Source of the DNA: a virus
Taxonomy: Duplodnaviria; Caudoviricetes
DNA: 61,345 bases
Virus record (IMG/VR): IMGVR_UViG_3300036861_000887
Location: 1-61,345 of that record
Direction: 5' to 3' (one strand)
Both the position numbers and the translations under genes were made by a program. Below are positions 16,457 to 60,392 of this stretch, piece after piece; position 1 is the stretch's first letter, and every line of letters begins with the position of its first letter. The notes under the pieces are model-generated. The model did not search any database, was not told the DNA's origin, and saw nothing but the letters and a program-made list of their open reading frames with translations.

Positions 16457-17554
16457 TTACTCGATATACTCCTCAATCGTCACTTGCTGCGCCTTCTCAG
16501 TCGGATGCACCACGACAATCACCAGTGTCTTAGTCGTTGTCGCCGTAATCCGCATCACCTCCCAGTCCTCGGCAAGTGCTATAATGGGATAGAGGTCTTT
16601 CTGTAACGCCTCGTCCGGTGTCATACCCCTCCTCCAAACCACTTGGGTTCCACCCGCCGCAGGACATACAGCGGGTCAGGCACTTCCCACCCAATCCCGA
16701 CGGGCGTGTCCTCGCGCACATACTGCACCTGGATCGGCTCCCCAAACAACGGGTACTCCGTCTCAGGATGCTCCAAGACGATCTCCGCATCCCCATACAG
16801 GGCAATCAGGCCTTGGAGTTGTGTCACGAGTTGGCTGGCACGCATCCTCATACTCCACCGGCTTCCGACTCGGGTTCCGCGTCTTCTTCGTCGCCACGAT
16901 ATTGCTCCCAGTGCAGTGTCAGGGGGGTCTGTGCGGCAAAGTTCGTTATCACAATCTCCCCTGTCGTCGTCAGAACAATGGTGCCATCGAATAATACCGT
17001 CGCCGCACTCCCAGGGGGAATATCGGCCACATGCACCGCCCCAGGAAGACGCCTCGGTCTCCTCATCCCTGCAACTCCTTCGGCAGCCGGGGCACGATCT
17101 CTACCGGGTGCGTCTCCTTCCACTGCGCCCATTGGTCCTTCAACGTCTCCTTGCAGGCAATGTGCACGCCATTTAGGAGCAAGCGGTGGACCTCCGACCA
17201 ATGGGGCACGCCTTGAAAGGAGAGTTGCCGGACATAGAGCTGCCCGTGCGCATCCACCGCCAAGGACAGGGTGATGAAGCCCTGCGGCGCGGCCACCTGG
17301 TCGATACCGTTTACGTCAGGCATTTACGCCTCCGGGACTGCTGGCAAGGCCGAAACAGGTAGCCACCAGCGAAAGTTCATAGTATTGCCATCAACCATAT
17401 CGAGCCACGTGTCATAATCATACCGGCAACTGACGATACGCCCTATCAACGTGGTCCAGTCAAAGCCCTCCGCGACCACCACAAGGATATACGGCGTGGC
17501 AGTTGGGTCAGGCTCCTGCACCTGTCGATCAATCCACCTCAACTCGTCCGCCAT
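16457..17554 (-). other. Run of about five small coupled hypothetical ORFs (e.g. 16621-16851, 17063-17323, 17324-17554)
   Basis: Abutting or overlapping start/stop codons on the late strand; no recognisable domains. Confidence 0.5.
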
Positions 17555-17808
17555 TCCTGCAAGTCCTTCAGCAGGTTGATAATTTCCATGTGCCCCACCC
17601 GCCGGTACGTATCATATGGGGTGTCACTGTAGATCGACGTGCGCGCCACTCGCTGTAGCGTCCCCGCTGGTGTTTGTTCCGTCACAATCTCCCGCCGTTC
17701 CACATATCGCGCCTCCAGCCACTCCAGCAGCATCTGCCCATCTCCCGTGTTGAGCAGCCGCGCCATGTGGCCGTAGAACGTTGCCAGGTCCTCGGAGGGC
17801 TCAGACAT
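17539..17808 (-). CDS. Bbp19-like small head-module protein
   Basis: LLNTGDGQMLLEWLEARY...YDTYRRVGHMEII resembles the small protein usually found between portal and scaffold. Confidence 0.55.
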   Translation of the reverse strand: MSEPSEDLATFYGHMARLLNTGDGQMLLEWLEARYVERREIVTEQTPAGTLQRVARTSIYSDTPYDTYRRVGHMEIINLLKDLQEWRTS

Positions 17809-17816
17809 CGCAATCC

Positions 17817-19090
17817 TCAAAATGTGGAGGCCAGCTCATCTTTCCACATCCCCTGTTCATGCAGGTGCGGCGCCTCACACGGCCCAAACCATGCGGCCAG
17901 AATCGCTCCTGGCTCTACCGGTGGCTGCCAGTGCAGGTAGTACTCCACGCAGGTACAGCCGCACACAAAATGCCACACATACGCGGGCCGCGACTCGTCC
18001 CAGGCCGCCTGCGGCACACTCATCGCGCCTCCCGGCGGGCTTTCGCCCGGGCCATGGCTGCCAGGGACTCCTCCAGCGTGGGATCATTCGCCACCTCGGT
18101 GGCATAGTCCACTTCGAGCGGCTCCGCCTCCCGTGTAAACAGGTGAGGAGGGAGCGTCCAGAGCCGCACGCCAAAGAGCCGCCGCAACTCCTGAAATCGT
18201 TCAACCGTCATGCTCGGCAGGGCCGGAGCAGGGGTGGAGGCACTGGAAGCCTCACGCGCTGGCAGCGCAACGCCCCACATCGCCGCCAGCGCCTGTTCTT
18301 GGGCCGCACGGACGTCGTAGCCATAGCTATAGCCACTCGGAGGGAGTCCCAGACGCGCCGAGATCTCGGCGTCCTGCAACTGGGCTGCGGCCCGGGCGAT
18401 CTCCGCGACTATCCGCTGTTCCCACGCGCGGATCCGCTCCGACTGGGCCAGATCTTCGGCGCTGCGATGGAGAGTGGACAACGCACACATCCTGGGCCGT
18501 TCGCTCATAGCCCCTCCTTCGGCACACACTCGATATGCTCGTAGATATACCGCAGCACCTGACACCGCGACAGCAGCGCTACCTCCCCGTCCGTGTCAGC
18601 GGGCAGCGCGTCCAGCACGGCGTTGAGTACCGCCAGCGTCTCGGTAATGAGCTGCGGCAGCGGGATCTGGCGCGTGGCGTGTAAGGTGTCCAGGGCAGTG
18701 TCTAGACTCATATCATAGAGACCTTCATGAAAAAGCCAATGGCGTGAGACCCACTTTCCAGATGGCGGATCCAGGCGGCCGTGTGGGCCGCCTGCCCCCT
18801 CCGCAGCGTCCCCCTCCGCAGCGTCCACCGCTTGGCTTTCTGCGTCCGGCGTTGGTGTGGACTCATGCTGCCTGTGCCTCCTGTGTCGCCAGCCACTTGT
18901 TCCACTTGTTCCACGCATGTTCCCGGGCGGCCGGGGTATACGCCTGGCGGGGTGGCCAGACAGATCGAAACCACCAGCGCGTGGCGCCTGCCGTGACCGT
19001 AACAGCATAGACCCACGCATCCTCGGGATAGGTGGGATACAGAGGGGCAAGGGGTGCAATCGGTTCCCACGACTCCTGCCACTGTATCAT
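17817..19090 (-). other. Run of small coupled hypothetical ORFs (17817-18023, 18020-18508, 18505-18710, 18708-18866, 18863-19090)
   Basis: ATGA-type coupling on the late strand; no recognisable domains. Confidence 0.5.
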
Positions 19091-20820
19091 GCTGCCTGTG
19101 CCTCCTGTAAGTTGACGAGTCCAGCGGTGCCCTGCTGGAACGCCGCCGCCCCCTCGCGGAGCACCTGGGCTTGTTGTGCCTGTGCCGCCTCCTGCACCCG
19201 TGTCGCCCGAATCTTGTCCCGTTGACGCGTATCCCGCAGCAGGTCACGCCGGTTCCCCAGTGCCAAGGCGGAATCCCTCAAACCCTTGTCCATGTCGAAG
19301 TTATCGACCCAATCCGTGCGGGCCGTCACCTGGGCCGCCTTCCCCAGTAAGTTTAACAGATCGTCCAGCGCGCGTACATGGGACGCCTTTTGACTGCGCG
19401 CCAGCGGGCCTTCATACCGCACCCCAATCTGTCCGCCATGCTGCTGCGCCGCCAGGAGCACTTCGCGCGGGACCAGAGGCAGCACACCATCCCGGCCACG
19501 CGCCCAGGCCTGCTCACTGGCCCGACTCATGAGCCCGAAGGTGCGGTCCATGAGGGGATCCAAGAAATCGGCCAACAACATCACGAAGACCGGCCCCATG
19601 AACCGCGCCATCAGTTCAATGCGTTGGCCCACCTCGTAGGCAGTCATCTTCCCCGTGGCATCCGGCGGCGGAATGGCCAGCAGGTCATCCACGTGGTAGG
19701 CATCCCGAATCTCTTTCTGGAGCCGCGCAATTTCCGAGACGACCTTATCGGGTTGCCCCTGGATATTGAGCGGGAACAGCGCGTCCTTCTGCTCCAGGAT
19801 GTTCACCGCCAATGGCGCAAACCGGAGTGCTCCGGTGAGGGCGCCATTGAGCAGCCCCAGCGCCGGTTGGGCATGCAATTCAACCATTTGCAGCCACATC
19901 ATAATCAATTTATTGAGTGTCTTGGCGGCGGGCAGCGCCTCATGCCCTGGCCCATACCCCCAGGCACTCTGGCCTTCGCGGTCGTAGCGACTCACCAAGA
20001 AGGGAAACTCCTCCCACCCCAGTTCCGTCACGACTTTCTTATCCGTGAGATCAATGATCACATCAGCAAACGGCAGGTTGCGACTGTCCCGGCGGCTGGG
20101 GTCTTGCACTGCGCGCGGGCAGACCACATGCAGATACGGCTCCTTTTCGTCCATTTTGCTATCGTAGTGGGTGCTCCGCATAATCCTCTTCGCCCGCTCT
20201 GGCGCTTGCTCCCGCCACTGCTCCACCGCCTGAATGGGGGTGAAGTAGAGCTTGCGCATGACGGTATCCACCCGCCCACTGGCCCCCTCGGCAATCACGT
20301 AGGAGCCGGGGTAGAGCGTCTGGAACCGCAGCGCAAACACCTGGCTTTCGTACCACAGGTCCTGCCGCTGGCCGACATACGTACAGGCCGTACCAAACAC
20401 CCCCAACTGCGCGTAGTGCTGGAAACTCTCCTGGTAGAAGTTGCTGGTGTTGTAGGCAAAGAGCATGCGGTCAGAGACCGTGCCCATCCAGGGAATCACC
20501 TCGGCGTCATCGTTGAGTTCCTCGTCTTCAAAGCCCAACTCAAACCACGGCAGCGCCGGGTTAGTCGCCGCCGCCTGCAAGTTCCCCGCAAACAGGCGCC
20601 GGGAGCGCAAGCCGGTCGCGTCAAAGAGGTCGAGGGTGCGCGTGCGGGCCAGGCCATCTGGTGTCTCGCCCCGGAAGATGTCACTCTTCGCGGGCCAAAA
20701 CAGATCCGCTTGTTGCCGCCAGGCGTCCAGGTGCGTCTGGTGCTGCCCAAAAAGATGCTCCGAGCGCGCAATGTGGCGCTCGGCCAGCGGACGGCGGTAG
20801 GGGATTACGGTGGCAGGCAT
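19087..20820 (-). CDS. Portal protein (head-tail connector, T7 gp8/Bbp21-like)
   Basis: 577 aa; LFDATG, NPALPWFEL, SNFYQE...LGVFGTAC, GRVDTV, WGYGPGHEALP and MTAYEV motifs. Confidence 0.93.
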   Translation of the reverse strand: MPATVIPYRRPLAERHIARSEHLFGQHQTHLDAWRQQADLFWPAKSDIFRGETPDGLARTRTLDLFDATGLRSRRLFAGNLQAAATNPALPWFELGFEDEELNDDAEVIPWMGTVSDRMLFAYNTSNFYQESFQHYAQLGVFGTACTYVGQRQDLWYESQVFALRFQTLYPGSYVIAEGASGRVDTVMRKLYFTPIQAVEQWREQAPERAKRIMRSTHYDSKMDEKEPYLHVVCPRAVQDPSRRDSRNLPFADVIIDLTDKKVVTELGWEEFPFLVSRYDREGQSAWGYGPGHEALPAAKTLNKLIMMWLQMVELHAQPALGLLNGALTGALRFAPLAVNILEQKDALFPLNIQGQPDKVVSEIARLQKEIRDAYHVDDLLAIPPPDATGKMTAYEVGQRIELMARFMGPVFVMLLADFLDPLMDRTFGLMSRASEQAWARGRDGVLPLVPREVLLAAQQHGGQIGVRYEGPLARSQKASHVRALDDLLNLLGKAAQVTARTDWVDNFDMDKGLRDSALALGNRRDLLRDTRQRDKIRATRVQEAAQAQQAQVLREGAAAFQQGTAGLVNLQEAQAA

Positions 20821-21092
20821 CAGTCCATCCGCTCTTTCTCCGGCACCGTGTACCGGGCAATTAACAGCTCAAGCACTTGGGCGGGCGTCAAGCTTTCATG
20901 GCGCCAGAGCCCCACGGTTCCCTCCGGGGTCCGCACATGCATGATGTCGTAGCGGCTCTGAGAAAACGTCTGACGCGCCTCGAACGCCTCTACATAGAAG
21001 GAGGGAAGTTCTATCTCCTCTGCATAGAAGGAGGGACGTGCTATCGAAAAATACCGTCCATCATAGGGTCCCCCCACACATAAAGCGCGCAT
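20820..21092 (-). CDS. Hypothetical protein
   Basis: 90 aa with a CVGGPYDG motif seen in small phage proteins; coupled to its neighbours. Confidence 0.6.
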   Translation of the reverse strand: MRALCVGGPYDGRYFSIARPSFYAEEIELPSFYVEAFEARQTFSQSRYDIMHVRTPEGTVGLWRHESLTPAQVLELLIARYTVPEKERMD

Positions 21093-21897
21093 CTACCGCC
21101 CTCCCACGGGAAAAACGGTGAACGGATTCGCGGGCTGCGGCGGTTCGCGCTCCCCCATCCGGTCCAGGGGATTGCCCGCGCCCGCGGCAAAGCCTGCGTT
21201 GGCAGAGGACTGGCGCCGTACCCCGGTGTGCTGTTCCCCAAACCAGACACACAGCCCCACGGCAAAGAGCAGATCATCATGCTGCCCAGAGCGCCAGGCC
21301 CCATATTGGTCATTCGCGTCTTTGGTAATCCGGTACTGGAAATTCTGCATTTCTTTGAGCAGCGTCGTGGCATCCGCCAGTTGATTCGACACCAGGATGC
21401 GTCGCGACTGCATGGCCACTTGCAGGCACCCCACCAGCGTCTTTTTGGGCAGCGTGTACTGCAACCAGTCATGTTGTACCGTCTGTTCCCCATGTCCCAT
21501 AGTCACCGCCACCGCAGGCACCCCTTCATGGCGAAAGAGTTCCACCACTGGGCGTCCGCACCCCGTCGCGTCAATGAGTAGGCGATAGGGCCTGGTCCCC
21601 GGATGCGCCGTCCAGTCACGCGGCATTGGCAACTTGTCGATATAGGTCAGCGTCCGCTCTAGCATCCCACCCCCAGACACCCCACCACACGGTCCGCACG
21701 GCTGCCCCGTGGGGACGGAATGCGCGCAGAGATGGGAATAGCCTGTGAGCAGCGGGAAGCGCTCCAGGTGCCGGACAGCGTACCGGGGCTCCACCTCCCC
21801 ACCAAAGTCCACCAGCGTGCGTTCGACAATGGCAATGGCAGCAGGGTCGCTTACTTGACCCACGTCAAAGACCCACCAACCAAGGCGCTATATGCAT
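21093..21897 (-). CDS. Terminase large subunit, nuclease (RNase H-like) domain; needs a +1 frameshift at 21864-21870
   Basis: Frame 1 reads MHIAPWLVGL then stop; the +1 frame reads DVGQVSDPAAIAI, followed by LLIDATGCGRPV and GQHDDLLFA catalytic motifs. Confidence 0.82.
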
Positions 21898-21929
21898 ATT
21901 ACACCTTGCTTTTCAATGCGTTGAGTCAT

Positions 21930-22346
21930 CTAATCCTTCCCTCTGCGCCGCGTGGGGGTCACTTCTGGCGCCTTCTCCACCGGCTCATGCCACGGTTGTT
22001 GCTTGGGCACGAACGGCGCACTCACCTGTTCCCGCATCGTCCCCTCCGCCATGTCTCGCGCCGCACGGGCCTGCATCTCGCGCGTCATCCCCACGCCTGG
22101 CTTCGTCGCCGGGTCATAGGCCGCGTAGCTCTGATTCATGGCATCCTTCAGTTGCTGCATGGGGAACAGCGGGGAGGGCGTGCCCAACTCCGCCCACTCC
22201 AGGCCCTTGGTCCGCCGCCGCATCGACAACACCGGGACCTCCTCGAACGTGACCACCACCTTCCCATCTTCGGTATGCAGATGGTCCCACAGCGCCGCCC
22301 AGTCCATAGTCCCCATCTCCGGCCATGCCACATGCAAGTCAGACAT
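21930..22346 (-). CDS. Hypothetical protein between the two terminase halves
   Basis: 138 aa, GGGGAG RBS, overlaps the stop of the ATPase gene. Confidence 0.65.
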   Translation of the reverse strand: MSDLHVAWPEMGTMDWAALWDHLHTEDGKVVVTFEEVPVLSMRRRTKGLEWAELGTPSPLFPMQQLKDAMNQSYAAYDPATKPGVGMTREMQARAARDMAEGTMREQVSAPFVPKQQPWHEPVEKAPEVTPTRRRGKD

Positions 22347-23217
22347 TTGCATTCTCCCCAAAAAGTCGTTGCACCTTGGAACTCAGGATCGTGTCGAGCA
22401 CCTCTCGATGATGTCCCGTGGGAAACAATGGGAGGACATCAGAGGTGAGCATATTTTGTACGTCTTCCCAGCGAAAAACCTGATCCATCGTATCCACAAA
22501 CTCACACAACCACTCCTGCCGAAACACCAAATCGGGTACCTGCCGCCGCTCATTTGCCAGGAACCGCTTGGACAGCCGAGGGCTCTCCGGCGCCGGGAGA
22601 AACGTCTTACTCCAAGTGAGCGGGCGGGTATCGGCCGCCCATTCCTCCTCGGTAATGTACGCAATCCCGAGATCGGCCAACAACGCTTCCGCCGTCGCCT
22701 TATCCATCTCTTGCGCCGTCAAATCGTCAGCTCCCGTCCAGGCCTCAAAGAACCAGCCCCGTTTCCCATACGGCGTCGTCGCCGCAATGAGGCGCCCTTG
22801 CGACATGGCCAGCATGGGGCGAATCGCATAATAGACCGCATCAGGAATCCGCGCCGCTTCGTCCAGCACCAGTAAGTCCACGCTCGAAAACCCCACAATG
22901 GTAAGGGCCGTTCCTGGAAGGCTGATAATCCGGCTACGGTTCGGCAACTCCAAACTGAGCGCCGTATCCCGCAGCAGCGGCATTGGCTGCGTTACATCGT
23001 AAAAGTGCTTGACTTTCCGAAATAACTCCCCACTTTGCCGCAAACTGGGCGAAATCAGCAGGACCAGGGCGCCGGCTTTGTTACACGCGGTCTCCAAGCT
23101 CAAGTCGGCCAGGTCCGTCGTCTTCCCCGACTGCCGATGACACACCCAGAGCTGATTCCCAGGAATGCCCGCGACCTGCGTTTGCCAGGCATCCGGCTCC
23201 AGGCCCGCGGCCCGCAT
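22339..23217 (-). CDS. Terminase large subunit, ATPase domain
   Basis: PDAWQ adenine-binding motif, HRQSGKTT Walker A, LLVLDEAARI Walker B, ATTPYGKRGWFFE motif III, FRQEWLCEF; ends before any nuclease domain. Confidence 0.9.
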   Translation of the reverse strand: MRAAGLEPDAWQTQVAGIPGNQLWVCHRQSGKTTDLADLSLETACNKAGALVLLISPSLRQSGELFRKVKHFYDVTQPMPLLRDTALSLELPNRSRIISLPGTALTIVGFSSVDLLVLDEAARIPDAVYYAIRPMLAMSQGRLIAATTPYGKRGWFFEAWTGADDLTAQEMDKATAEALLADLGIAYITEEEWAADTRPLTWSKTFLPAPESPRLSKRFLANERRQVPDLVFRQEWLCEFVDTMDQVFRWEDVQNMLTSDVLPLFPTGHHREVLDTILSSKVQRLFGENANV

Positions 23218-23221
23218 TAAC

Positions 23222-23878
23222 TCAAGCGCGGTGACCGTTCTGGCCGGGGCCTGACTCGACAGCGGTATACGTTGCTCGAAGCGCTGGAGCAGCCCCTGGC
23301 TCAGTGTGCTGTTGGAGGAACGCGCGAATCGCCTGTTGCCCTTCCGGATCTCCCACATAGCGCAATACCAATTCCACAAAGGCGTCTAGGAACGCTTCAT
23401 CTTGGCGAAAGATTTCAAAATACCGGCCCAGCAACTCCAGCGCCTTCACCTTCGGATGCAGGGTCAACTCAATCTGCGTATGGCGGTGCGTCGCCTTATC
23501 CGGCCCCGTGGTCACCCGCGACCGCACTTTGACAGACTGCACCGTCGCCGTGATATGCCGTGGCAGTTTGGCCGACGGCACCAGGGCCACCTCCCCCGCC
23601 TCGTCCCAACTCATCAGCTGACTCACATCGGCAAACGCCAAGGCCGCCAACTCTTGCAAGACCGCTTCGGGCGTAATGTGAATCGTCTCCCGGAGCTGCT
23701 TGAGTCGCGTCGTGAGGGCGACTTGCATCAGCGGCTGACTGAGAATCTGTTGCGCCCGCTGCTTCGCCGAGCTGGGCGTATACCCTGCGCGCACCGCCGC
23801 CGCCGCCGCGTTGAAATCAACCAGGTACTCTTCAAGTAACCGCGCCTTTTTTGGCGTCATCTGGCTCGGATGTGGCAT
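23222..23878 (-). CDS. terS: Terminase small subunit
   Basis: MTPKKARLLEEYLVDFNAAAAAVRAGY...VLQELAALAF...KVKALELLGRY is a classic Terminase_2 pattern. Confidence 0.9.
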   Translation of the reverse strand: MPHPSQMTPKKARLLEEYLVDFNAAAAAVRAGYTPSSAKQRAQQILSQPLMQVALTTRLKQLRETIHITPEAVLQELAALAFADVSQLMSWDEAGEVALVPSAKLPRHITATVQSVKVRSRVTTGPDKATHRHTQIELTLHPKVKALELLGRYFEIFRQDEAFLDAFVELVLRYVGDPEGQQAIRAFLQQHTEPGAAPALRATYTAVESGPGQNGHRA

Positions 23879-23881
23879 CGC

Positions 23882-24367
23882 TTATAGCCCAAACCAGTAC
23901 TTGACCAGATCGGTGCACGGCCCGTCATGCTGCCCCTGGAGCTTCTCGGCCAGCAACAGCAGCCCCTGACAGGAGCGCTTATGTTGCGCAATGGCCGCCA
24001 GCTTCGCCTGCACCAGCACTGCAAACTGCTCCAGCGTGGGCGCATGGACATCAATGAGCGGCAGGCTCTCCAAGGGAATGCCTGCCGCCAGCGCGTCTAC
24101 CTTGGCCGACAGGGCCTCCACCTCGCTCCGCATCTCTTTATAGAGGTCCTCAAAGGCGCGCACGGCATCGTGCACCGGGGTATCTGACGCCCCCGTCACC
24201 GAGGCGACACCACCCGCCGCCTTATTCTGCCGCTTCGCTGCCAGCACCATTCGCGCTACCTGGGCATCCTCGCTCCCCGGCCCCACGTCATCCGGGTCCG
24301 GCTCAATTCGGTCACTGAAGTCCAAGGTGTCCTCGGGCTCTTGGATGAAGGGATTTCCTTTGGGCAT
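23882..24367 (-). CDS. Hypothetical protein
   Basis: 161 aa, AAGGAG RBS, acidic N-terminus, C-terminal HxxxC...HxxxC. Confidence 0.6.
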   Translation of the reverse strand: MPKGNPFIQEPEDTLDFSDRIEPDPDDVGPGSEDAQVARMVLAAKRQNKAAGGVASVTGASDTPVHDAVRAFEDLYKEMRSEVEALSAKVDALAAGIPLESLPLIDVHAPTLEQFAVLVQAKLAAIAQHKRSCQGLLLLAEKLQGQHDGPCTDLVKYWFGL

Positions 24368-24369
24368 GC

Positions 24370-24540
24370 TTACTCCTTCTTTGCCATATGCATAAAATCG
24401 CCCAATTTCTTCGCCCCCATCTGGGCCATGGCTTTAACGGCCTTGCGCGCCCCTGCGGGAAACCGCGTGATCGGTGCGCCGAGGGCATAGGCCTTGGCCA
24501 TGCGGGCCGTATGCATCTGGGCTGTCGAGACAGCTGGCAC
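24370..24540 (-). CDS. Small basic protein, DUF3008-like
   Basis: GTG start; MPAVSTAQMHTARMAKAY...KAMAQMGAKKLGDFMH resembles MPAKSKAQ...MSEKELEDFA-type proteins. Confidence 0.45.
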   Translation of the reverse strand: MPAVSTAQMHTARMAKAYALGAPITRFPAGARKAVKAMAQMGAKKLGDFMHMAKKE

Positions 24541-24548
24541 AGGTCCTC

Positions 24549-25022
24549 CTAATTCGCCACCAAGCTTCCTGAGGAGCGCCACGTCAAACCATCCGAAATC
24601 ACACGGGTGCAATCATTGGCGGTGAGGACGATATCCGCCGCACCGATAGACAAGAAGGCCGCGTTGTTGTCAAGAGTGATGGAATTCGTGACCCCTACGT
24701 TACAGACGACCATTTCGCAAGCCGCGCCACCCATAGTGGTCGCCGCTGTGAACGTCGCAGAAGTAGAAGTCGTCACTGCTCCCGCAGCCGTGATCCGCTT
24801 AAGCCCTCCACATGCATCGCCGCGTATGGTATCCCCCGACGCAATGGTTTGAATCGCGGGCAGTGGCCCCATGCTCCCATCCACAAACTGATAGATCTGT
24901 CCTCGAATAGGATACCGCGCCACCGCCGCCCAGGCCACCACCGCCCAGACCAGGCCCACGACCAGGCACAGCGCCAGGCCCTTGCCCACCCCCGTCAACC
25001 TATTCCAGAGTCGTCGCATCAT
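24549..25022 (-). CDS. Signal-peptide protein, beta-rich fibre/baseplate-like domain
   Basis: Hydrophobic leader ending AWA; Thr/Ala beta strands; VISDGLTWR C-terminus. Confidence 0.65.
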   Translation of the reverse strand: MMRRLWNRLTGVGKGLALCLVVGLVWAVVAWAAVARYPIRGQIYQFVDGSMGPLPAIQTIASGDTIRGDACGGLKRITAAGAVTTSTSATFTAATTMGGAACEMVVCNVGVTNSITLDNNAAFLSIGAADIVLTANDCTRVISDGLTWRSSGSLVAN

Positions 25023-25029
25023 ATTCCTC

Positions 25030-25383
25030 CTATGGCAAGGACCAAATGTGAACCGTCGCAGAAAGACCCGTGTCGCATATGACACTTACGCTGCGTATCG
25101 GCCGCTTCTCCCAATGCACCGTTTCCCCAGCTGCCAGCGGAACCGTCGTGGAATCCACCGTGGCCGCCCCATTAAACTGATAATACACCGGGTCCCCGCT
25201 CACATTGCGGATATACCCTTCCATCCCCGGCTGCGGCGTCCCGCCACCCGCCGTAAAGGTAATCGTCGTGGTGCTTACTGTGGCTGTGGCCGCCACCACC
25301 TTGGAGAACGGCATCAGGCCCCAGGCCACTCCCCCCAGCAGCACCACCGCCAGACTCCCCACCAGGCCCCACCGCCACTGCAT
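25030..25383 (-). CDS. Signal-peptide protein, small jelly-roll-like
   Basis: Leader ending AWG; YIRNVSGDPVYYQFNG...VPLAAGET pattern. Confidence 0.65.
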   Translation of the reverse strand: MQWRWGLVGSLAVVLLGGVAWGLMPFSKVVAATATVSTTTITFTAGGGTPQPGMEGYIRNVSGDPVYYQFNGAATVDSTTVPLAAGETVHWEKRPIRSVSVICDTGLSATVHIWSLP

Positions 25384-25395
25384 TGCGTTGTCCTC

Positions 25396-25633
25396 CTACG
25401 GGACCATGCCAGCCACGGCCGCGTTCAGTGCGTCCAAGCGCGCAACCGCCTGGTCAATTTTCTCTTGATCGACCATATCCGCCTCAAGAATCGCTTTAAT
25501 CGCGGCCGTTTCATCGGCCACGGTCTGCGTTAAGGTGGTAATCATAGTCTCTAACCGTTCAGTGGATGCCATAAGCTTCGTCTCCAAGGCGTGGAGCGCC
25601 TGTAAAATATGTGTCGTCTCGTGTCCGTCCATC
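25396..25633 (-). CDS. Small coiled-coil protein (start uncertain)
   Basis: ALETKLMASTERLETMITTLTQTV heptad pattern. Confidence 0.5.
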
Positions 25634-25687
25634 CCATGCCAATACAGATGCACATGCAGGGTTAAATCAATGGGCGTTCCTCCTCTG

Positions 25688-25837
25688 TTACAACCGACCA
25701 CTCAGCAGCAGGATCACCAGAATAATCACCAGCACAAAGCCCAGGCCCGAGGGACCGTATCCCATTTGGTGATAGCCCCATGTCGGGAGACCACCCAGGC
25801 TGAAAATGATGAGGATGACCAACAAAACCAGCAACAT
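25688..25837 (-). CDS. DUF3309-family two-helix membrane protein (49 aa)
   Basis: Below the ORF-track size cutoff. Manual translation MLLVLLVILIIFSLGGLPTWGYHQMGYGPSGLGFVLVIILVILLLSGRL matches the LPTW...GYxPSG...LxGRL family pattern. Confidence 0.8.
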   Translation of the reverse strand: MLLVLLVILIIFSLGGLPTWGYHQMGYGPSGLGFVLVIILVILLLSGRL

Positions 25838-25841
25838 ACGT

Positions 25842-26051
25842 TTATGCCCTCCCCTCTGCGCCCCTCCGAAACTGCTCCACCAGTTCTTCGTATGTCGGAA
25901 TCAGTGCCAGGACATCATCTTTTGGCGCACCAGGCGGAAGCGTGGCACGCTTCCGATGCCCACACATGCAGCACACGACATGCGCCTTGCTGAGGACTGT
26001 CTTGTCCTGGCAGTAGCAGTGGTCCGCCGGGTTGCAATGGCTCCATATCAC
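25842..26051 (-). CDS. Small Cys/His-rich hypothetical protein
   Basis: HCYC...CCMCGH; coupled to the upstream gene. Confidence 0.5.
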   Translation of the reverse strand: MIWSHCNPADHCYCQDKTVLSKAHVVCCMCGHRKRATLPPGAPKDDVLALIPTYEELVEQFRRGAEGRA

Positions 26052-26383
26052 GGCCTCAGCACGAGTGGTGGTTTGTGTAAATCATTGACAATCTTGGAAA
26101 TGCATCGAAAGTTCACCCCGGCCAATTCCGTGATATCGGCCTGGTCCACGACGGCCGCCGTCGGGTACAGCGCCACAAAGGCCGCAAACGCCCGTTGGAC
26201 CGCCTCTTCCATGTTCTGCTGGGTCAGCCCGCCACTCTCCACCAGGTCATCCACTTCATCAATGAGGGGAGCCAGCGTGGGCAGAAACCGGAGGAGGACC
26301 GGGCTTTTCCCTACGCCCGGAATCCACCCCCAGATCATCGGGAGAAACAACAGCAAGGCTTTCAGTTGCAAGGCGAAACTCAT
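26048..26383 (-). CDS. Hypothetical protein with hydrophobic N-terminus
   Basis: 111 aa, GGAGGGGG RBS. Confidence 0.6.
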   Translation of the reverse strand: MSFALQLKALLLFLPMIWGWIPGVGKSPVLLRFLPTLAPLIDEVDDLVESGGLTQQNMEEAVQRAFAAFVALYPTAAVVDQADITELAGVNFRCISKIVNDLHKPPLVLRP

Positions 26384-26393
26384 ACCCCCCTCC

Positions 26394-26759
26394 CTACGGC
26401 AAGGTTAGTTGCAAAATGACTTTGAGATTACTTGGGCTCAATACTTGTGTGACAAAAACTTCATTACTTTTATCAGACTCAAGGTTCCCAGGCGCCGTCG
26501 CGGTTAAGGCGTAATACTCACCGGCCGCACACTGCGTGGTATACGTTGGTTTCGTCGCATCTGGCAGGGACGACACAGGAATGATCACATAGCTGGTATA
26601 GGTTTTACTCACCACCCCTTTGTACAGGCGATAGGCATCAAAGGCTGGCCCTCCAGGCCCTGGCGGGGTCCAGGCCCAGGTACACGGCGCTGCGTGCGCC
26701 AGTCCCATGGTCAGCACACTGAGGAGCAGCAAGACACTCCCGGTCAAGACGCGTCTCAT
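26394..26759 (-). CDS. Secreted fibronectin type III-like protein
   Basis: Signal peptide ending AHA; WTPP...YRLY...YYALTA...NLESDKSNEV is a canonical FN3 pattern. Confidence 0.8.
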   Translation of the reverse strand: MRRVLTGSVLLLLSVLTMGLAHAAPCTWAWTPPGPGGPAFDAYRLYKGVVSKTYTSYVIIPVSSLPDATKPTYTTQCAAGEYYALTATAPGNLESDKSNEVFVTQVLSPSNLKVILQLTLP

Positions 26760-26769
26760 CGATAGACTC

Positions 26770-27408
26770 CTATCCCGGGAGCGGCGGGACAGGGGCCGCC
26801 ACCGGGGTCATAATGCCCTGAAACACATACGTGGCCCCCATGCCGATCACGGTGACCAACAGCTCCACCGGAATCTCCCGCCCATCCTTACACAGGGCCA
26901 TGGTGCGAAAGGGTTGCCCGATAATGCGGGAGGGCTCCCCGGCGCGGAACGCCTGCAAGCTCTCTCGATGCTTGGCCCGCAAGGCCGCGGGAACGGCGAG
27001 CGTGGCAAACTCCTTCCCCAGCACTTCCGCCGCGAGCCAGCCCAGGAGCTTCGTCGCCGCGGCATTCCAATCCTGGACATGGCCGGTGGCCGTGAGGACG
27101 ATACACACCGGCGCCCGCTGTTCCACTTCCTGGACGAGGAGCCGCCGCGTCGTGTCGGCCTCCATCGCCTCATGCTTGGCATGCGTAAATGCGCTCTCCA
27201 CCGCCAATAATTGCCGCTCCAAGCGCTCCATCCGCGAATTGGTGTTGTGATCGACCTTGTCGACCTTGGTATCCAACACCTCCTGGTTGGTGAGCACGCT
27301 CTCGGTCTTTTTGCGCAACGCCAGAATCTGCTGGCCAATCGCGCCAACAAGCAGCACGAGCACGCCGCCCACTGCCCCAATGATCGCTGTCATGTCCCCG
27401 ATCGTCAC
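26770..27408 (-). CDS. Membrane-anchored coiled-coil plus PAS domain protein
   Basis: N-terminal TM helix and coil, then GHVQDWNAAATKLLGWLAAEVLGKEF...KHRESL...IIGQPF...ALCKDGREIPVELLV (PAS/PAC). Confidence 0.88.
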   Translation of the reverse strand: MTIGDMTAIIGAVGGVLVLLVGAIGQQILALRKKTESVLTNQEVLDTKVDKVDHNTNSRMERLERQLLAVESAFTHAKHEAMEADTTRRLLVQEVEQRAPVCIVLTATGHVQDWNAAATKLLGWLAAEVLGKEFATLAVPAALRAKHRESLQAFRAGEPSRIIGQPFRTMALCKDGREIPVELLVTVIGMGATYVFQGIMTPVAAPVPPLPG

Positions 27409-27424: not shown

Positions 27425-30400
27425 CTACCGCACTGCATAGGCCTGCACCGCCTGGATCCGCCCCAGGACGGTGTACGTGGTAAAGCGCGTCGTGTCACTC
27501 TTCACCAGCCGCAGATCGACATAATCCGTGCCCACCTCCGCTAGGGATGACAGCTTCACCACCGCCACGTATTTGCCACAGTGTGTCGCGGTCATGGCAA
27601 ACGGAGCACTGGGCATCCCGCCTACCTTGCGGAACGTGCCCCCATCCAGCGTACAGCCCGAGAGCGAGGCCGTCGTCGCCGCACCGTTCGTCACAGCCAC
27701 ATCCTGCCCATAGCACGCCAGATGCCCCGTGCAGTCGTCGGTCAGCGTGTACCAGTTGGCGTCCGCCGCGTTGCTACTCGTGCAGTTGGTGCTGTCACAG
27801 GCCTGAAAGATATGGCTCGCGGCCGGACAGTCGTTGGTACTGCATGAGAACTCCAGATGTTCCTGCGCGGTCGCCCCCGGGGGGAGGTAGCAGGGCGCAT
27901 CCAGCACCGCATCACGAATCGTCAGTCCCTGGGTAAACGTCTCCCCGGCCAGCGCACAGCGCGCATGGGTCTGCGCCAGCACGCCATCCCCAGCCGGAGG
28001 CGCCGGGGCGTTGTTGGTGATATTCTTGCACCCCGCCGCCAGTTCCGTCGTGCCATTGGTGATGGGAGACGCGGTGCCCTGGGTGTAGCAGAGTTGCCGC
28101 TGCGCCTCGCCGTAGACAAAGGGGGGCGTAATCGGGATGGCGTACTGGCTCACATTAATGCGGTCGATACTGGCAGACACCGTATGCCCCGCATCGACGG
28201 CCAGGCCCGTGGCACCGGTCGCTGGCACAATCGCCCCCCCGGCCGGGTCCAGGGTCGCGACAATCGTGGTGAGATCCTCCGCTGCCACCGTCGCCAGCAG
28301 CAGCGTGGGCGCCGCGGGCGGCGCCGCCACCTGGTTCACGCAGTTCGCGATGGCCCCGTAGGCAAAATCGGCTAATGCGACACCCGTGCTGCCCGTGATG
28401 TTGCTGGCCACTGCCTTGACTCGCACGGTATGCCCCGTGACGAACGCCGTTGTCGTGGTAAACTCAAACTCATTCACGCCAATCCGCGTCCCTGTGCCGC
28501 TCATGGTCTTGTCCACACCGTTGTCATCAAAGGTGATGCCCGTGGCGCCAGACGCCGGGAGCATGTTCCCTGCCACACCTGAGCTAAACGTAATGCGCGC
28601 GGTCACATCAGACGCGGTATCGGGAATCAGACACGAGATGGGCAGGGGCGGCGGATCGGTCCCCCCAGTGAGGGTGTTGGTGATTGACTGGCTGGTGACG
28701 GCCAGCCGCTCGCCCGCAACGCCATTCGTCCCCCCGACCTGCTTCCCCGACTTGATCGCACCAGCCACCGTATAGAGCTTCAATACATCGCTCGGCTGCA
28801 TGCTGGCGCCACTGACCGTCAAGAGGAGCGAGGCCCCGCCGGCTTCGACCGGGCAGGCCGTCACCGTCCGCGCCGTGCCCGTCGTCGTGGCATCGCAAAT
28901 GCCCCCCGCCGGGTTGACACAGACGTACATCAGCCCACACGTCACGGTGATGGGGGTCTCAATGGCGCAGACCGTCGCCCGGAGCGTATGGGTATCCACG
29001 GTCGTCACCGTCGGCACCGTGGGAATTTCGAGGGCGCCTGGGTCCCCTTGGGTATTGTTGGGACAGGCCGGGCTAAAGCTGAGACTGTTGACGGCCGGGC
29101 TCGTACTCGTCAAGTTCACATTCGTCGCCGAGACAAACAGCGGGTCGGCCACCTGGCTACTCGTGTCGGGCGTGCCACTCCGCGCCTGCCAGGTCCCCAG
29201 GGTTTTACTGACCCCGCCCTCAAAGAACGGCTTGCGCCCTGTCGTGTGATGCAAAAACACATTCTGAGTCGCCGCCGTCTTCCCGCCCGTCCAATTGGCG
29301 CTGGCATTGCCCCCGAGTTCGGCACTACTGGCCGTGGCGTCCGTGTTCACCCCGTTGTTGGCCACGATACTGCGAGAGAGATTGACGGTTGCGCCGGCGG
29401 TATTGGCCTCTATCCCCATCCGGCTATTCCCCACAATCGTGCAGTTCGTGGCATTTACGGTGAGCCCCGCATGTTGCGCGACGAGCCCATCATACGCCCG
29501 GACGAGCAGGCAGCGGTTCAGCGTCACCGTGCCCGGGCCATTCAGAAAGACGGCGGAGGCAGGCACGCCAGCGGCCGCACAGGCGGGAATCCGGGGATCA
29601 CTGAGGCTGGTGAGATGATCATGGCTATACAAGCCATTGAACGTGACCGGGACGGCGGTCGAATTGGCCCCGTTATTAGGCCCCCCGCCATTGTGCACGT
29701 TGAGGTTCGTGAGGACGATATTCGACCGCTGGCACGGCGTCCCATTATGGCAGGCCGCAAAGCCACCATGAGCAAAACTGTTATACATCTCGCCGTCTAC
29801 GTCCAGGTAATCCGCAATGCTCCCATTTTTACTCAGGTCCTCCTGATCGCGCCCGGAGTCATGCCGGACCACCCGCGTGAAGGTCACATCCTGAATCACG
29901 TCCGAAGCCACATTCGTGAGGAGATACACGAGCGGCTGGCCGTCACTCGTCCCACAGCCACTACAGGCATTCCCCACCACGGTCCGGGGCGCACTAAAGG
30001 ACAACTCGACGTCCGTGACGGTAATGTGCCGGGCGTTGAATCCAATGTAGAGGGCCTGTTTCGGCGCCCCGCGAATGACGAGATTACTCACGTCCCAGTA
30101 GTCACGATCAATCAGCAGCATGGGCTGTGTTGCGCCAGTCGTCGCGATGCTCAAGGCCTCGAACCCCGGATTGCTAAAGGTATCCGGGTCCGCATCGTTC
30201 CAGGTGTACAGCTTGGCCTCGGCCGTGTTGTAGCACCACTGGTTGTTACTGGCGAGGTGTGCCGGGCAGGAGACCGGCGTACAGGAATTCGTGGCGCAAC
30301 ATGGGGGGTTATTCCCGCTCCCCGGCGCAATGTAGGTCCAACTGGAACGATTCGGATGCCAGCCGTGATCCAGGTTCATATGGGTCGATGGATTGGCCGG

Positions 30401-30928
30401 ATCATAGTCACAGGTGTAGCCGCGATGCGTCACCCCCACCATGGCAGCGGTGCCACACTGCTTATCCGCGTCCTGGAGCACCGTGGCATAGGGATTGACC
30501 GACTGGCTCGCCCACCAGACTTTGGCTTTCTCCCCACTACTCAACACACTGCACTGGCCGACGTTGCCGGTACACGTTGTCCAGCCCGTCACGAGGCTCA
30601 GGGGCGTAATAATGGGACGCACCAGCGAATTGCGAATCGTGGTACAGTTGTAGTTGGTCAGGGTAATATGCTGACTCGCCGTCCCCGAGTTGACGGTATT
30701 CGCCAAGTCGTACATGCGATGGATGGCGCCGTTACACACCCGGATCGTATCGCCTGCCACAGACACATCGACGGCGCCTTTGAGCGTCTCCTTGGCCAGC
30801 GCTTCGGTGAGGCCCGAATCGGCATTGTTCCCTGTGGGTTGATCGACATACCGCACGGTGGCCCAGGCAGGCGCAGCGAGCCCGACACAGAGGCACAGCA
30901 GGCCCAGGAACACGCGCAGATGTCGCAT
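27425..30928 (-). CDS. Large secreted Cys-rich protein: right-handed beta-helix plus Ig/SwmB-like repeats (1167 aa)
   Basis: Signal peptide ending AWA, then TVRYVDQPTGNNADSG...AKETL (DUF1565/beta-helix start); NCTIVGN, SIVANN and ADPLFVS...LTSTSPAVN motifs; Pro linkers between beta-sandwich modules. Confidence 0.8.
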   Translation of the reverse strand: MRHLRVFLGLLCLCVGLAAPAWATVRYVDQPTGNNADSGLTEALAKETLKGAVDVSVAGDTIRVCNGAIHRMYDLANTVNSGTASQHITLTNYNCTTIRNSLVRPIITPLSLVTGWTTCTGNVGQCSVLSSGEKAKVWWASQSVNPYATVLQDADKQCGTAAMVGVTHRGYTCDYDPANPSTHMNLDHGWHPNRSSWTYIAPGSGNNPPCCATNSCTPVSCPAHLASNNQWCYNTAEAKLYTWNDADPDTFSNPGFEALSIATTGATQPMLLIDRDYWDVSNLVIRGAPKQALYIGFNARHITVTDVELSFSAPRTVVGNACSGCGTSDGQPLVYLLTNVASDVIQDVTFTRVVRHDSGRDQEDLSKNGSIADYLDVDGEMYNSFAHGGFAACHNGTPCQRSNIVLTNLNVHNGGGPNNGANSTAVPVTFNGLYSHDHLTSLSDPRIPACAAAGVPASAVFLNGPGTVTLNRCLLVRAYDGLVAQHAGLTVNATNCTIVGNSRMGIEANTAGATVNLSRSIVANNGVNTDATASSAELGGNASANWTGGKTAATQNVFLHHTTGRKPFFEGGVSKTLGTWQARSGTPDTSSQVADPLFVSATNVNLTSTSPAVNSLSFSPACPNNTQGDPGALEIPTVPTVTTVDTHTLRATVCAIETPITVTCGLMYVCVNPAGGICDATTTGTARTVTACPVEAGGASLLLTVSGASMQPSDVLKLYTVAGAIKSGKQVGGTNGVAGERLAVTSQSITNTLTGGTDPPPLPISCLIPDTASDVTARITFSSGVAGNMLPASGATGITFDDNGVDKTMSGTGTRIGVNEFEFTTTTAFVTGHTVRVKAVASNITGSTGVALADFAYGAIANCVNQVAAPPAAPTLLLATVAAEDLTTIVATLDPAGGAIVPATGATGLAVDAGHTVSASIDRINVSQYAIPITPPFVYGEAQRQLCYTQGTASPITNGTTELAAGCKNITNNAPAPPAGDGVLAQTHARCALAGETFTQGLTIRDAVLDAPCYLPPGATAQEHLEFSCSTNDCPAASHIFQACDSTNCTSSNAADANWYTLTDDCTGHLACYGQDVAVTNGAATTASLSGCTLDGGTFRKVGGMPSAPFAMTATHCGKYVAVVKLSSLAEVGTDYVDLRLVKSDTTRFTTYTVLGRIQAVQAYAVR

Positions 30929-31035
30929 TATGTGATGGTCCTCACAATCGCTTGCATTGGGCCACAACGGCGGATATAACTCTTGCTGCACTGTGCAGAG
31001 TTCCACGGACCCACACCCAGAAAGGATGGACGCCG

Positions 31036-33172: not shown

Positions 33173-34468
33173 TTAGTTCGACGTCGTCTTCAGCCAGGTC
33201 ATTAACCCACCTGTCCACATGCCGGTGGTAATGGATTGCGTAGCCGTGCCGCTATCTTCGTTGTCAATAATGAGCCGGAGCGACTCCCCGGCACTACAGC
33301 CCGAGGTGGTAATGGCCACGGTATTGGAATGGTTGATCGTGTTGGTTTGATTGGAGAAGGTAATGGTCGCGGTGTTGGTGGTCCCCGTCGCCGGCGCCGT
33401 CGCCAACTGCTCGGTGGTCGCCGTGCACACCACTTGCATGTCAGCAATCATCGTCAACCCGCTCTGGTTCGTCAGGGAAAAGCCCGTGAGGGTGACACTG
33501 AGCACCCCGGCATCCCACGTGCTCGGCATTTTGGGAATCCGCAGCACCATCCGGCCGTTATCGTTGTCCAGACAGGAGATGGTGGTCTCAGCCGGATAGC
33601 TGCTCTGCGCCACGTCGCTTTGCACACAATTCACGCCGTCCACGACCAGGTTCGCCGCCGTAAACGCGATATCACTGGTGAACTTCCCGCTCCCCGTCAT
33701 GGTCAGCGTGCCTGTGAGCGTCCCTCCCGCCGCCGGGAGCAGTCCCGCTTCCGCCACGGTCCCCGGCACGAGCTTTTTACTACTGTCGAAGACCGCAATC
33801 TTGGAGGCCGTCGCATCGGTGACAATCGGCCCCACCGCCAGGGTCGTCGCGCCGGTGACGGTCAGCTTGTTCTGCGAGCCACAACTCTCCACCGCCGCAT
33901 AGGTCGTGAGCCCCGTATCGTCCATCGTCCGGCAGGTCACCTGGGTGCCCGCGCCGTTATCGATGCTGGTGGTTTCCGATTTCCCCGCCTCAATCGTATT
34001 GTTAAACGGCAGCCGGACCCCCGCCGCATCGTAGCACCGGAGGCCTGGCGCTCCAGCAACAATGCCTTGCTCACAGCGCAGATCGGGATCCCCCGCATCC
34101 GTGGTAATGAGCGCCGTCGTGGTACTGTTGCCCACGGTGGACACCGCTTGCAGGCTGGGCGTACTGGCAGATCCCGCCGCCTGGGTGTAGACAGTATCCG
34201 CGCCAAAAAAGACCGCGAGTGGACTGCGCTGGACACACACAATGTAGGGATAGGCGGCCGCCTCACTGGCGCAGTCGGTGGCAAGTTTGACGTAGGTGAG
34301 CGTGATGCCTACGGCCCCCACGCAACAGAGCGCCAGGGTGGTGAGAAGCCAGGGACGGAGACGGCGCCATGGGAGCAGCCAGCGACGCTGAGGAGTCAGC
34401 AGGCGCTGCGCCTGCCGGAGGAGACGAGCCAACCGCCATTCCGCGATGCACCGCTGCCACCAGGACAT
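33173..34468 (-). CDS. Membrane-anchored or secreted fibre-like protein
   Basis: Basic leader plus hydrophobic helix; PSLQAV...GNSTT and LLPAAGGTLTGTLT motifs typical of phage fibre shafts; C-terminal beta-sandwich. Confidence 0.65.
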   Translation of the reverse strand: MSWWQRCIAEWRLARLLRQAQRLLTPQRRWLLPWRRLRPWLLTTLALCCVGAVGITLTYVKLATDCASEAAAYPYIVCVQRSPLAVFFGADTVYTQAAGSASTPSLQAVSTVGNSTTTALITTDAGDPDLRCEQGIVAGAPGLRCYDAAGVRLPFNNTIEAGKSETTSIDNGAGTQVTCRTMDDTGLTTYAAVESCGSQNKLTVTGATTLAVGPIVTDATASKIAVFDSSKKLVPGTVAEAGLLPAAGGTLTGTLTMTGSGKFTSDIAFTAANLVVDGVNCVQSDVAQSSYPAETTISCLDNDNGRMVLRIPKMPSTWDAGVLSVTLTGFSLTNQSGLTMIADMQVVCTATTEQLATAPATGTTNTATITFSNQTNTINHSNTVAITTSGCSAGESLRLIIDNEDSGTATQSITTGMWTGGLMTWLKTTSN

Positions 34469-45594: not shown

Positions 45595-46126
45595 AGTTCA
45601 GAAAAAACGTAAAAGGATTCGGGGCATCCTCGGGAGGGGTGAATCCTCTGCCAAAGATATTCAATTGGGGTTGTAGCAGGGCGATACACCATCTTTCAAA
45701 CAGCTTGGCCTCTTCTTCAGAGCATTCAAGGTAGGCGAAATCCGTAAAGGCCTTCTCCTCGCTGCGATGTCGGGCAATCCGAGTCATGATATCGGTCGAT
45801 CGTCCAACGTAGACGATGGTCGTGAACGAGAGGAGAAAATAGAGCCCGCAGAGGGGCTTAAAGGGTTGCGCATGGCGACGGATTAACCATTCGACATGCT
45901 CCCGATCAATCGTCTTCAGCGTCAGTGGTCCATAGAGGGCTTCGAGGGGTTTTTTCCCAATACTGTGTAGATCGAGGACGTGGGAGAGCCGTTTTTTGAG
46001 CAAGAGCTGCGCAACAAACTCTGACGTGGAGCCAGAGGACTCCCGATGTTCCTTCCCATTCCGTGAGTAGGCAATCCACCAGATGTTCTTCCGCTGAAAC
46101 ACGCGTCCCTCACCCCGCATCTTCAT
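45554..46126 (-). CDS. Integrase-arm-domain plus GIY-YIG nuclease fusion
   Basis: N-terminus MRGEGRVFQRKNIWWIAYSRNGKEHRESS is paralogous to the integrase N-terminus; C-terminus GLYFL...VYVGRSTDIMTRIARH...E...PQLN. Confidence 0.82.
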   Translation of the reverse strand: MKMRGEGRVFQRKNIWWIAYSRNGKEHRESSGSTSEFVAQLLLKKRLSHVLDLHSIGKKPLEALYGPLTLKTIDREHVEWLIRRHAQPFKPLCGLYFLLSFTTIVYVGRSTDIMTRIARHRSEEKAFTDFAYLECSEEEAKLFERWCIALLQPQLNIFGRGFTPPEDAPNPFTFFLNSDTERTLSDEEVL

Positions 46127-47204: not shown

Positions 47205-47540
47205 TTATGCGCGCGCATTATGGGGATCTCCGTTGCGGGAGGCAAGCCACTGCCGCATCCCGGCCTCGGAACAGTACCACCGGTGGCCATCGTGGATGGT
47301 AAACGGCAGCGTGGCCACCCGCTTGTAGAGCCATTTCTGTGTGACACCCAGGTGCCGTGCCGCGTCCGTGACCGTCAAGAGCGTCAGGCTGGCGGGCAGC
47401 GCGTGCGGGAGGAGCAGGAGTTGCACGCCCAGCGCACTCTGGAGCGCTGCAACCAGCGGGACGAGCGCGACCACCTCCTCTCGACTCAGTTCGGGCACGA
47501 GCGTGAGGAGCCGGTGCACCTGCTGCTGGGGCGTGTCCAT
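47205..47540 (-). CDS. Excisionase-like HTH_17 protein
   Basis: LLTVTDAARHLGVTQKWLYKR; directly upstream of int. Confidence 0.75.
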   Translation of the reverse strand: MDTPQQQVHRLLTLVPELSREEVVALVPLVAALQSALGVQLLLLPHALPASLTLLTVTDAARHLGVTQKWLYKRVATLPFTIHDGHRWYCSEAGMRQWLASRNGDPHNARA

Positions 47541-48701: not shown

Positions 48702-48725
48702 CTCGTCCCTCCTCCCCCGTGGGGG

Positions 48726-49112: not shown

Positions 49113-49114
49113 GG

Positions 49115-49681: not shown

Positions 49682-49791
49682 AGAGATCTCCGGTAGCCCG
49701 CACCCGGGACACTTCCCCTGCAGGACGGGTACGGAAAGCTGGGGGAGCGGCTGGGCTGTTTCCTTTGGCGAGTTGGCAGCCCAGCCGACGA

Positions 49792-50935: not shown

Positions 50936-50944
50936 GGAGCACTA

Positions 50945-52476: not shown

Positions 52477-52523
52477 CACCCTGCATCCTGACTGGCTTGG
52501 CGGCAGAGGCAGGATGCAGGGTG
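52477..52523. repeat. Intergenic 14-bp perfect inverted repeat
   Basis: CACCCTGCATCCTG ... CAGGATGCAGGGTG. Confidence 0.75.
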
Positions 52524-60389: not shown

Positions 60390-60392
60390 CGT

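Follow-up and report, generated by a model that had tools for sequence, protein, structure and literature searches.

Start of the nuclease gene

The question raised by this locus is whether a CTT TGA C heptamer, interrupting the start of a predicted terminase nuclease gene of a soil phage, is a programmed +1 frameshift site of the type known from the release factor 2 (RF2) gene prfB, or the trace of an accidental insertion. The window is an entire IMG/VR virus record of 61,345 b (CheckV completeness 85%) that lacks end repeats, and it carries the nuclease gene at 21093-21897 of the minus strand. Direct reading of this strand gives a ribosome-binding site AAGGTG (21907-21902), a 4-nt spacer and ATG 21897-95, followed by the codons CAT ATA GCG CCT TGG TTG GTG GGT CTT TGA C GTG GGT CAA, where CTT occupies 21870-68, TGA 21867-65, C 21864 and GTG 21863-61; the duplex of AAGGTG with a generic anti-SD tail, which may not be that of the host, has an energy of -6.7 kcal/mol. 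The 0 frame, opened by ATG 21897, comprises the ancestral start and the first ten codons of the nuclease gene (21868..21897; MHIAPWLVGL); it is closed by CTT TGA C (21870-21864), where one extra T places a UGA directly after the Leu10 codon. The +1 frame following TGA reads DVGQVSD and is open for 257-258 codons; if CTTT is decoded as Leu in one step, the product is MHIAPWLVGLDVGQVSD..., 267 residues long, with the stop codon at 21093-95. In the alignment, homologues match the 0 frame as far as Leu10 and, beginning with Asp11 (GAC 21866-21864), the +1 frame; in the closest homologue, P0003, the counterpart of MHIAPWLVGL is MPLAPFLLGL. Since the match switches frame exactly at Leu10/Asp11, the extra base is one T of the run 21867-21869. 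The original prediction had read all these elements, from the ribosome-binding site to the GTG, exactly, and it had also stated that a +1 shift restores the GLDxGQ strand with the catalytic Asp, which agrees with the invariance of D11 in 23/23 rows of the alignment.

The first stop met upstream in the nuclease frame is TAG 21890-88, and between this codon and GAC 21866-64 there is no ATG, GTG or TTG. Asp11 is thus out of reach of ordinary initiation and can only be included in the product via a +1 shift. Gene callers choose the in-frame GTG at 21861..21863, from which the long ORF (21093-21863) encodes 256 aa (P0034); as had been pointed out in the original prediction, this start omits strand 1 and the Asp, and the model strand E6-11 and D11 are indeed absent from the shorter product. 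Reading UGA as a sense codon was considered and rejected, as the 0 frame past the UGA is unlike the homologues.

The heptamer CTTTGAC occurs 11 times in the window, compared to 5.7 expected copies, and 3/100 shuffled sequences reach 11. Only one of the 11 copies, that at 21870, lies at a frame junction, where a short frame closed by its TGA meets a long open +1 frame; there, the +1 frame is closed six codons upstream. Several other copies are plain TTT-GAC codon pairs within long ORFs.

A 13-codon mini-ORF, MTQRIEKQGVICI, is located in the nuclease frame (21888..21929, minus strand) and closed by TAG 21890-88; it begins at the base right after the stop codon of the neighbouring 143-aa ORF (TAG ATG), and its closing TAG overlaps the first codons of the ATG 21897 frame. 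In the predicted RNA fold of 21880-21910 (minus strand), the AAGGUGU of the ribosome-binding site pairs with GCGCCUU of codons 4-5, with the AUG in the loop; overall, the region of the ribosome-binding site and AUG folds no better than shuffled sequences (z -0.25).

Predicted product of the interrupted gene

The 256-aa ORF matches phrog_27743, annotated in PHROGs as of unknown function, and a Pfam search with the nuclease sequence (P0001) returned no families at E <= 0.01; the profile Terminase_6C (PF17289) is matched by 5/23 members of the nuclease family, with the best E-value being 6.7e-09. A search of the PDB with a profile of these 23 members indicates relatedness to the nucleases of the large terminase subunits (TerL) of phages G20c and P74-26 (E 2e-11). 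AlphaFold modelling of the nuclease (pLDDT 83.8, pTM 0.79) and a Foldseek search point in the same direction, as every PDB match listed, including 35 at E <= 0.001, is a terminase of a phage or herpesvirus or the nuclease domain of one, and G20c is the top match (E 5.7e-07, TM-score 0.65 on the target, identity 18%). The body of the protein (21093..21866, minus strand, +1 frame, from Asp11 to the stop) is predicted, from profile and fold, to be a stand-alone TerL nuclease of the RNase H/RuvC-like type, and the profile match and the fold bear out the identity of a terminase nuclease proposed earlier.

The profile alignment places GLDVGQxxD opposite GADFGKNQD of G20c and HDD opposite HDD. The residue numbering of G20c was mapped by motif spacing against PMC5389553; the spacing of D294/D300 and the match of HDD to H427-D428-D429 make Asp11 the counterpart of G20c D294 and, judging from the alignment, the first catalytic carboxylate. 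The G20c study (PMC5389553) describes D294, D347 and D429 of G20c as indispensable and D294N as being among the least active mutants. Residues D11, D109 and D208, aligned with the G20c motifs as equivalents of D294, D347 and D429, are invariant in 23/23 rows. In the model, Asp11 terminates the strand E6-11, and the catalytic D11 is found only in the +1-shifted product. The metal-binding pattern of G20c (PDB code 5m1f) and P74-26 (PDB code 5tge), consisting of GxD...D and HDD, is also seen in the nuclease of the window; unlike the G20c nuclease, which is the C-terminal domain of a single TerL chain, that of the window would be a separate 267-aa product with additional inserts. Past the interrupted site, every one of the 36 alignment columns invariant among the ten closest proteins is preserved in the nuclease, and no second lesion was found in the rest of the gene. 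A search of the 61-kb record for a second nuclease copy gave only the single match.

Split terminase and its gene neighbourhood

Counting along the minus strand, the order of genes is small terminase subunit, ATPase, 143-aa ORF, nuclease, 90-aa ORF and portal. The small terminase subunit (23222..23878) matches PF03592 at 7.7e-26, and the TerL ATPase subunit, encoded by a separate gene (22339..23379), matches phrog_7579 at 6e-53 and PF03237, with the relatives matching it over residues 4-326. The portal, a T7-type head-to-tail connector (19087..20820), matches PF12236 at 3e-88; all these genes are located on the minus strand.

In 75/80 related viral loci (L002-L081), a separate ATPase ORF lies just upstream of the nuclease, with frame offsets distributed as 45/16/14. 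The Asp codon is located 18-108 nt past the ATPase stop in 53/75 loci and 150-1099 nt past it in 20/75, the remaining two being anomalous. The nuclease start overlaps the ATPase gene by 4 nt in 24/75 loci, a heuristic count that takes the candidate start nearest the ATPase stop. A split TerL, ATPase followed by nuclease, is a trait of the family. No match to the stand-alone nuclease was found among 50,697 records of cultured phages at E 1e-5. The ATPase matches a 415-aa gene of Meiothermus phage MMP17 annotated as 'terminase, ATPase subunit', which was not counted as a precedent for a split terminase, and the phrase 'split terminase' was absent from the literature searched.

The 143-aa ORFan between the ATPase and nuclease genes (21930..22361, minus strand) has no Pfam or PHROG match; among 5.8 billion proteins, its sole match is the gene call of the window itself, and no counterpart was found in the 80 related loci. 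The ATPase and nuclease genes abut in most relatives, and this ORF sits between them in the window; its GC3 of 0.82 is the second highest in a rough gene map of the phage.

Conservation of the site among relatives

A protein database search revealed 32 homologues of the nuclease, 184-267 aa long and all stand-alone. No interruption is seen in any of the 22 aligned homologues, among which P0003 is the closest, with 72% identity and an N-terminus reading MPLAPFLLGLDIGQ; each of the 22 begins with M-x(1-25)-hydrophobic-G-[LVIC]-D-x-G-[QK], and residues G9, D11, G13 and D17 are invariant in the nuclease alignment. At the DNA level, the Asp codon and an upstream start codon share the same ORF in 79/80 viral loci, the remaining locus being cut by the contig end, so that none of the 80 is interrupted before the Asp. 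The search patterns used for these loci lie downstream of the site, and the sample is thus unbiased with respect to it. Among metagenome contigs, 76/80 copies are intact, two are at contig ends, one (L101) is broken mid-gene and one (L136) is without a canonical start; one of the two search patterns used there includes the GLD motif, which biases this sample towards intact copies. Genome contigs, mostly MAGs, contributed 71/80 intact copies, one at a contig edge and eight broken at other positions, several of the latter adjoining homopolymer runs.

The Leu-Asp pair is written CTT GAC in 19/237 relatives, and none of the 237 has CTTTGAC at this pair; the closest relative, P0003, entered the comparison as a protein, encoded on a 27.5-kb Logan contig. 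Since relatives already use CTT GAC, one slipped T suffices to give CTT TGA C; the heptamer follows from pre-existing codons, and its match to the RF2 site is not independent evidence of design. Metagenome contigs searched with the nuclease of the window yielded 116 stretches fitting the patterns, none of them confirmed, and a search of metagenome and genome contigs with the alignment of the ten closest proteins found relatives whose best segment is only 32-49% identical. A check proposed with the original prediction, whether homologous nuclease genes keep CTTTGAC, thus gave a negative answer at every level (0/22 proteins and 0/80 viral loci interrupted; 0/237 with the heptamer). The comparison of these sequences indicates that the interruption is lineage-specific and is neither a family trait nor a conserved recoding signal.

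Two side observations concern the relatives. The broken nuclease genes of the genome contigs L212, L231 and L237 (also L223; ~3750-4010 in each locus) come, for the first three, from the unrelated taxa Thermomicrobiales, Methanomicrobia and Rhodothermia, and their breaks lie at approximately the same place, positions 27-45 of the family profile, downstream of the catalytic strand; the frame change in L237 adjoins a run of eight A. These breaks may be long-read homopolymer errors or decay, and their shared position is curious. Loci L072, L076, L077 and L078 (~2860-3010) encode an N-terminal extension of ~45 residues ahead of the GLDLGQ strand; this extension contains two Cys-x-x-Cys pairs and resembles a zinc ribbon.

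The additional T and the choice of start

The region is held by two soil-metagenome runs, designated X1 and X2, from two studies, with X1 probably being the source run. In the Logan assembly of X1, a 12,604-b contig (depth 10.5) covers 17000-27000 without differences, and the gene call P0034 (256 aa) from this contig shows the same break. In X2, another sample from another study, a 788-b contig (depth 4.8) matches 21865-22652 end to end, also with 0 differences, and thus carries GGTCTTTGA; it stops 2 nt beyond the T-run, short of the 31 nt of the bridging rule. No indels or variants are listed for X1 or X2, and contigs hide minority alleles such as a TT subpopulation. As the sequences of the two runs are identical, they represent one clone rather than independent retention. 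A TT/TTT polymorphism was also considered as a cause of the X2 contig ending at 21865 and rejected, as a branch of that kind should have broken the contig off at 21868 and the assembly of X2 is fragmented as a whole; low coverage would account for the end.

These data bear directly on the reading that the true sequence is CTTGAC, that the gene is intact and that the extra T is a sequencing or assembly artefact. A single-base change in homopolymer length is what such an artefact would look like, and this very gene is broken in 8/80 genome (MAG) contigs, several times beside homopolymer runs; against this, what are probably the source reads gave an identical sequence with a second assembler (depth 10.5), TTT-GA is also read at depth 4.8 in the other run, from a different study, neither run has a listed indel or variant, and a run of three T is short. 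The extra T was taken to be real DNA, and the sequencing error mentioned as a competing explanation in the original prediction is now very unlikely, both contigs having TTT. It is extremely unlikely that the gene is meant to yield the 256-aa protein starting from GTG 21863, whether ribosomes restart there past the UGA or initiate directly. The GTG stands 1 nt past the UGA with GGTGGG 8 nt upstream, which could serve as a ribosome-binding site there, and the Logan gene caller picked this start; the product, however, would not contain the strand E6-11 predicted for the RNase H core nor Asp11, which is invariant in 23/23 rows and equivalent to a residue, D294, described as indispensable in G20c (PMC5389553), and 79/80 viral loci start upstream of the Asp. 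Initiation at ATG 21929 in the nuclease frame, with TAG 21890-88 being read through, has a negligible likelihood: that frame does enter the nuclease with a single stop, and some homologues have longer N-termini, but the RLGWWVF that it would place before the Asp is unlike the invariant G9 and L10, whereas the ATG 21897 frame fits, and no suppressor tRNA gene was found in the record (0 tRNAs).

Comparison with the prfB frameshift site

In the review by Atkins and colleagues (PMC5009743), CUU UGA C is given as the RF2 shift site, with the C following the UGA weakening termination, a stimulatory Shine-Dalgarno (SD) element 3 nt from the shift site being mentioned for +1 events and the RF2 frameshift cassette being described as highly conserved. 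The original prediction had named the same heptamer as the programmed RF2 shift site, in agreement with this source. The window site corresponds to prfB in several respects: it shares CUU UGA C and the +1 codon GAC, its product is in the +1 frame, a G-rich stretch precedes it and it lies early in the ORF; the mechanism would match as well, with UGA-C being read slowly as peptidyl-tRNA-Leu leaves CUU and re-pairs with UUU, as described for prfB in the same review (PMC5009743).

The upstream signal is less clear. The motif GGTGGG (21872..21877, minus strand) contains GGTG 3 nt before CTT, forming four pairs with CACC of the anti-SD at -6.0 kcal/mol, or -7.9 kcal/mol with a bulge, computed against a generic anti-SD that may not match the 16S tail of the host; among 5352 codon positions in the phage's own genes, this pairing is in the top 5.0%. 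The earlier description of GGTG/GGTGGG as only a weak SD thus holds for this generic tail. Pairing of GGTG with CACC suggests a register different from that of a GGAGG core at the same spacing. GGTGGG also consists of codons for the conserved Leu-Val-Gly. The E-site codon of the window is GGU, with a G:C pair at position 2, rather than a weakly pairing codon; in E. coli prfB, it is UAU. In an RF2 reporter study (PMC2377451), shifting was reduced when the E-site codon formed G:C pairs. No RNA structure was found downstream of the shift site (z 0.52 and -0.25).

Other differences from prfB concern the product and the family. The window site leads to a terminase nuclease and not to RF2, the factor that reads the 0-frame stop, so that there is no feedback loop, and the cassette is unconserved among orthologues (0/22 proteins, 0/80 loci, 0/237 relatives). 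With no relative carrying the site, weak signals, a GGU E-site codon and no structure, the site was not filed as a prfB-type cassette; the proposal of a prfB-type programmed gate, or of a link to RF2 levels, made in the original prediction, is unsupported by these comparisons.

Probable accidental insertion and possible slippage

The interruption is probably a lineage-specific, unselected T insertion in the Leu10-Asp11 pair, leaving either an unprogrammed +1 slippage or a null allele. From the observed insertion, its position and its lack of conservation, the following course may be inferred. A T inserted at the Leu10-Asp11 codons would have changed CTT GAC to CTT TGA C, and ribosomes starting at ATG 21897 would reach the UGA at codon 11. 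Peptidyl-tRNA-Leu might then slip from CUU to UUU (+1), giving a 267-aa active enzyme; ribosomes that do not slip would release a 10-residue peptide, and some may restart at GTG 21863, producing a 256-aa protein without strand 1 and the metal-binding Asp. The accident would have created the most shift-prone +1 site known, with a weak UGA-C stop, and low-level 'compensatory' slippage is likely for that reason. Within the insertion reading, slippage sufficient to keep the phage viable is a real possibility, although we would put it below even, and an allele that is in effect null is rather doubtful. The original prediction had mentioned an inactivating mutation as a competing explanation; a real mutation is the best reading of the locus, with either an inactivating or a leaky effect.

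Several considerations favour a sufficient yield. The large conserved genes that were checked look intact, each being a single long ORF with a family match, no broken copy was seen among the 80 viral contigs, and the same allele is present in two runs; moreover, the lesion lies where slippage within this gene would be likeliest, and only about 1/1000 of the possible single-base indels in the nuclease gene would, by our estimate, create the heptamer, which favours the allele being tolerated. On the other side, the phage is temperate and 8/80 genome-borne copies of the gene are broken, the signals are weak, and scanning very many windows yields such coincidences by chance.

The reading that stands against an accident is an evolved prfB-type +1 frameshift, where selection keeps CUU UGA C together with GGUGGG and holds the nuclease low or tracking RF2; we regard it as improbable. 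It draws on the identity of the heptamer to the RF2 site, including the C after the UGA, on GGTG placed exactly 3 nt before CTT, the spacing given for +1 stimulators in PMC5009743, and on the gene being intact downstream of the site, and as these would also be features of an evolved site, they count against the accident. The same allele in two runs from two studies and an integrase located mid-contig with phage-like genes on both sides, suggesting a non-integrated genome, can be added. However, the homologous proteins (0/22) and viral loci (0/80) are uninterrupted, the closest relative (72% identity) among them, and CTTTGAC is found in 0/237 relatives; the codons of the conserved Leu-Val-Gly dictate the G-rich stretch, whose pairing is weak, the register of GGTG probably differs from that of a GGAGG core, the E-site codon is unfavourable, and the two runs are one clone, which removes independent retention. 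It is accordingly unlikely that the TTT allele is functional and maintained, with a shifty stop throttling the nuclease of the split terminase and the output rising when host RF2 falls. That a 'savior indel' lowers the exposure of terminase to host sensors detecting TerL is pure speculation.

The preferred reading, an accidental insertion, has partial counterparts elsewhere. In PMC5009743, 'compensatory' frameshifting is described for an indel in the G-run of herpes virus thymidine kinase, with low-level decoding. This 'savior-indel' case resembles the window in that an indel in a useful gene is offset by low-level shifting and the non-shifted product is useless; it differs in being a slip in a run of seven G under drug selection, whereas the window has a shifty stop with no known selective benefit and the shifting is predicted. 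[quoted passage not shown] Hau3 and the window share a phage terminase gene requiring non-standard decoding for the full product, with bypassing in the former and a +1 shift at a stop in the latter. A non-exhaustive literature search revealed no title or abstract with a +1 shift in a terminase. The structural genes of Listeria phage PSA have +1 shifts beside a stop, yielding two useful products, at sites other than CUU UGA C; a phage late gene with a +1 shift next to a stop would be common to both. The site is a further example of known phenomena, namely a frameshift mutation and, possibly, shifty-stop compensatory frameshifting.

If the allele is only a lesion, the finding is routine, concerning one broken gene in one metagenomic phage; it also warns that slippage by one T in CTT-GAC produces a look-alike of the RF2 signal. 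Should the phage be viable, an essential phage enzyme would here depend in nature on unprogrammed slippage, which could represent a first step towards programmed frameshifts, and the amount of terminase nuclease required by a phage could be measured in a simple system. A functional and maintained allele would be the first case of RF2 sensing by a recoding site in a phage packaging enzyme. The wider context may outweigh the site itself: a large family of uncultured phages in which the large terminase is split into ATPase and nuclease genes.

Phage genome

The record belongs to a temperate, T7-like or podovirus-like soil phage. In addition to the packaging genes, it encodes a tail protein, an internal virion protein and a primase/helicase, and a tyrosine integrase is located mid-record (46110-47177, minus strand; phrog_1, 3e-47). 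Beyond the integrase, 47341-61345 is a plus-strand block with genes for Bro-N, an SNase homologue and many unknowns. No tRNA genes and no clear host gene were found in the record; with phage-like genes on both sides of the integrase, the map suggests a free or circular form rather than a prophage. Three large ORFs appear from sequence searches to belong to no known family: one of 1193 aa (27425-31006, minus strand) and one of 431 aa (33173-34468, minus strand), each without a PHROG match at 1e-5, and one of 685 aa (55017-57074, plus strand), with neither a PHROG nor a Pfam match.
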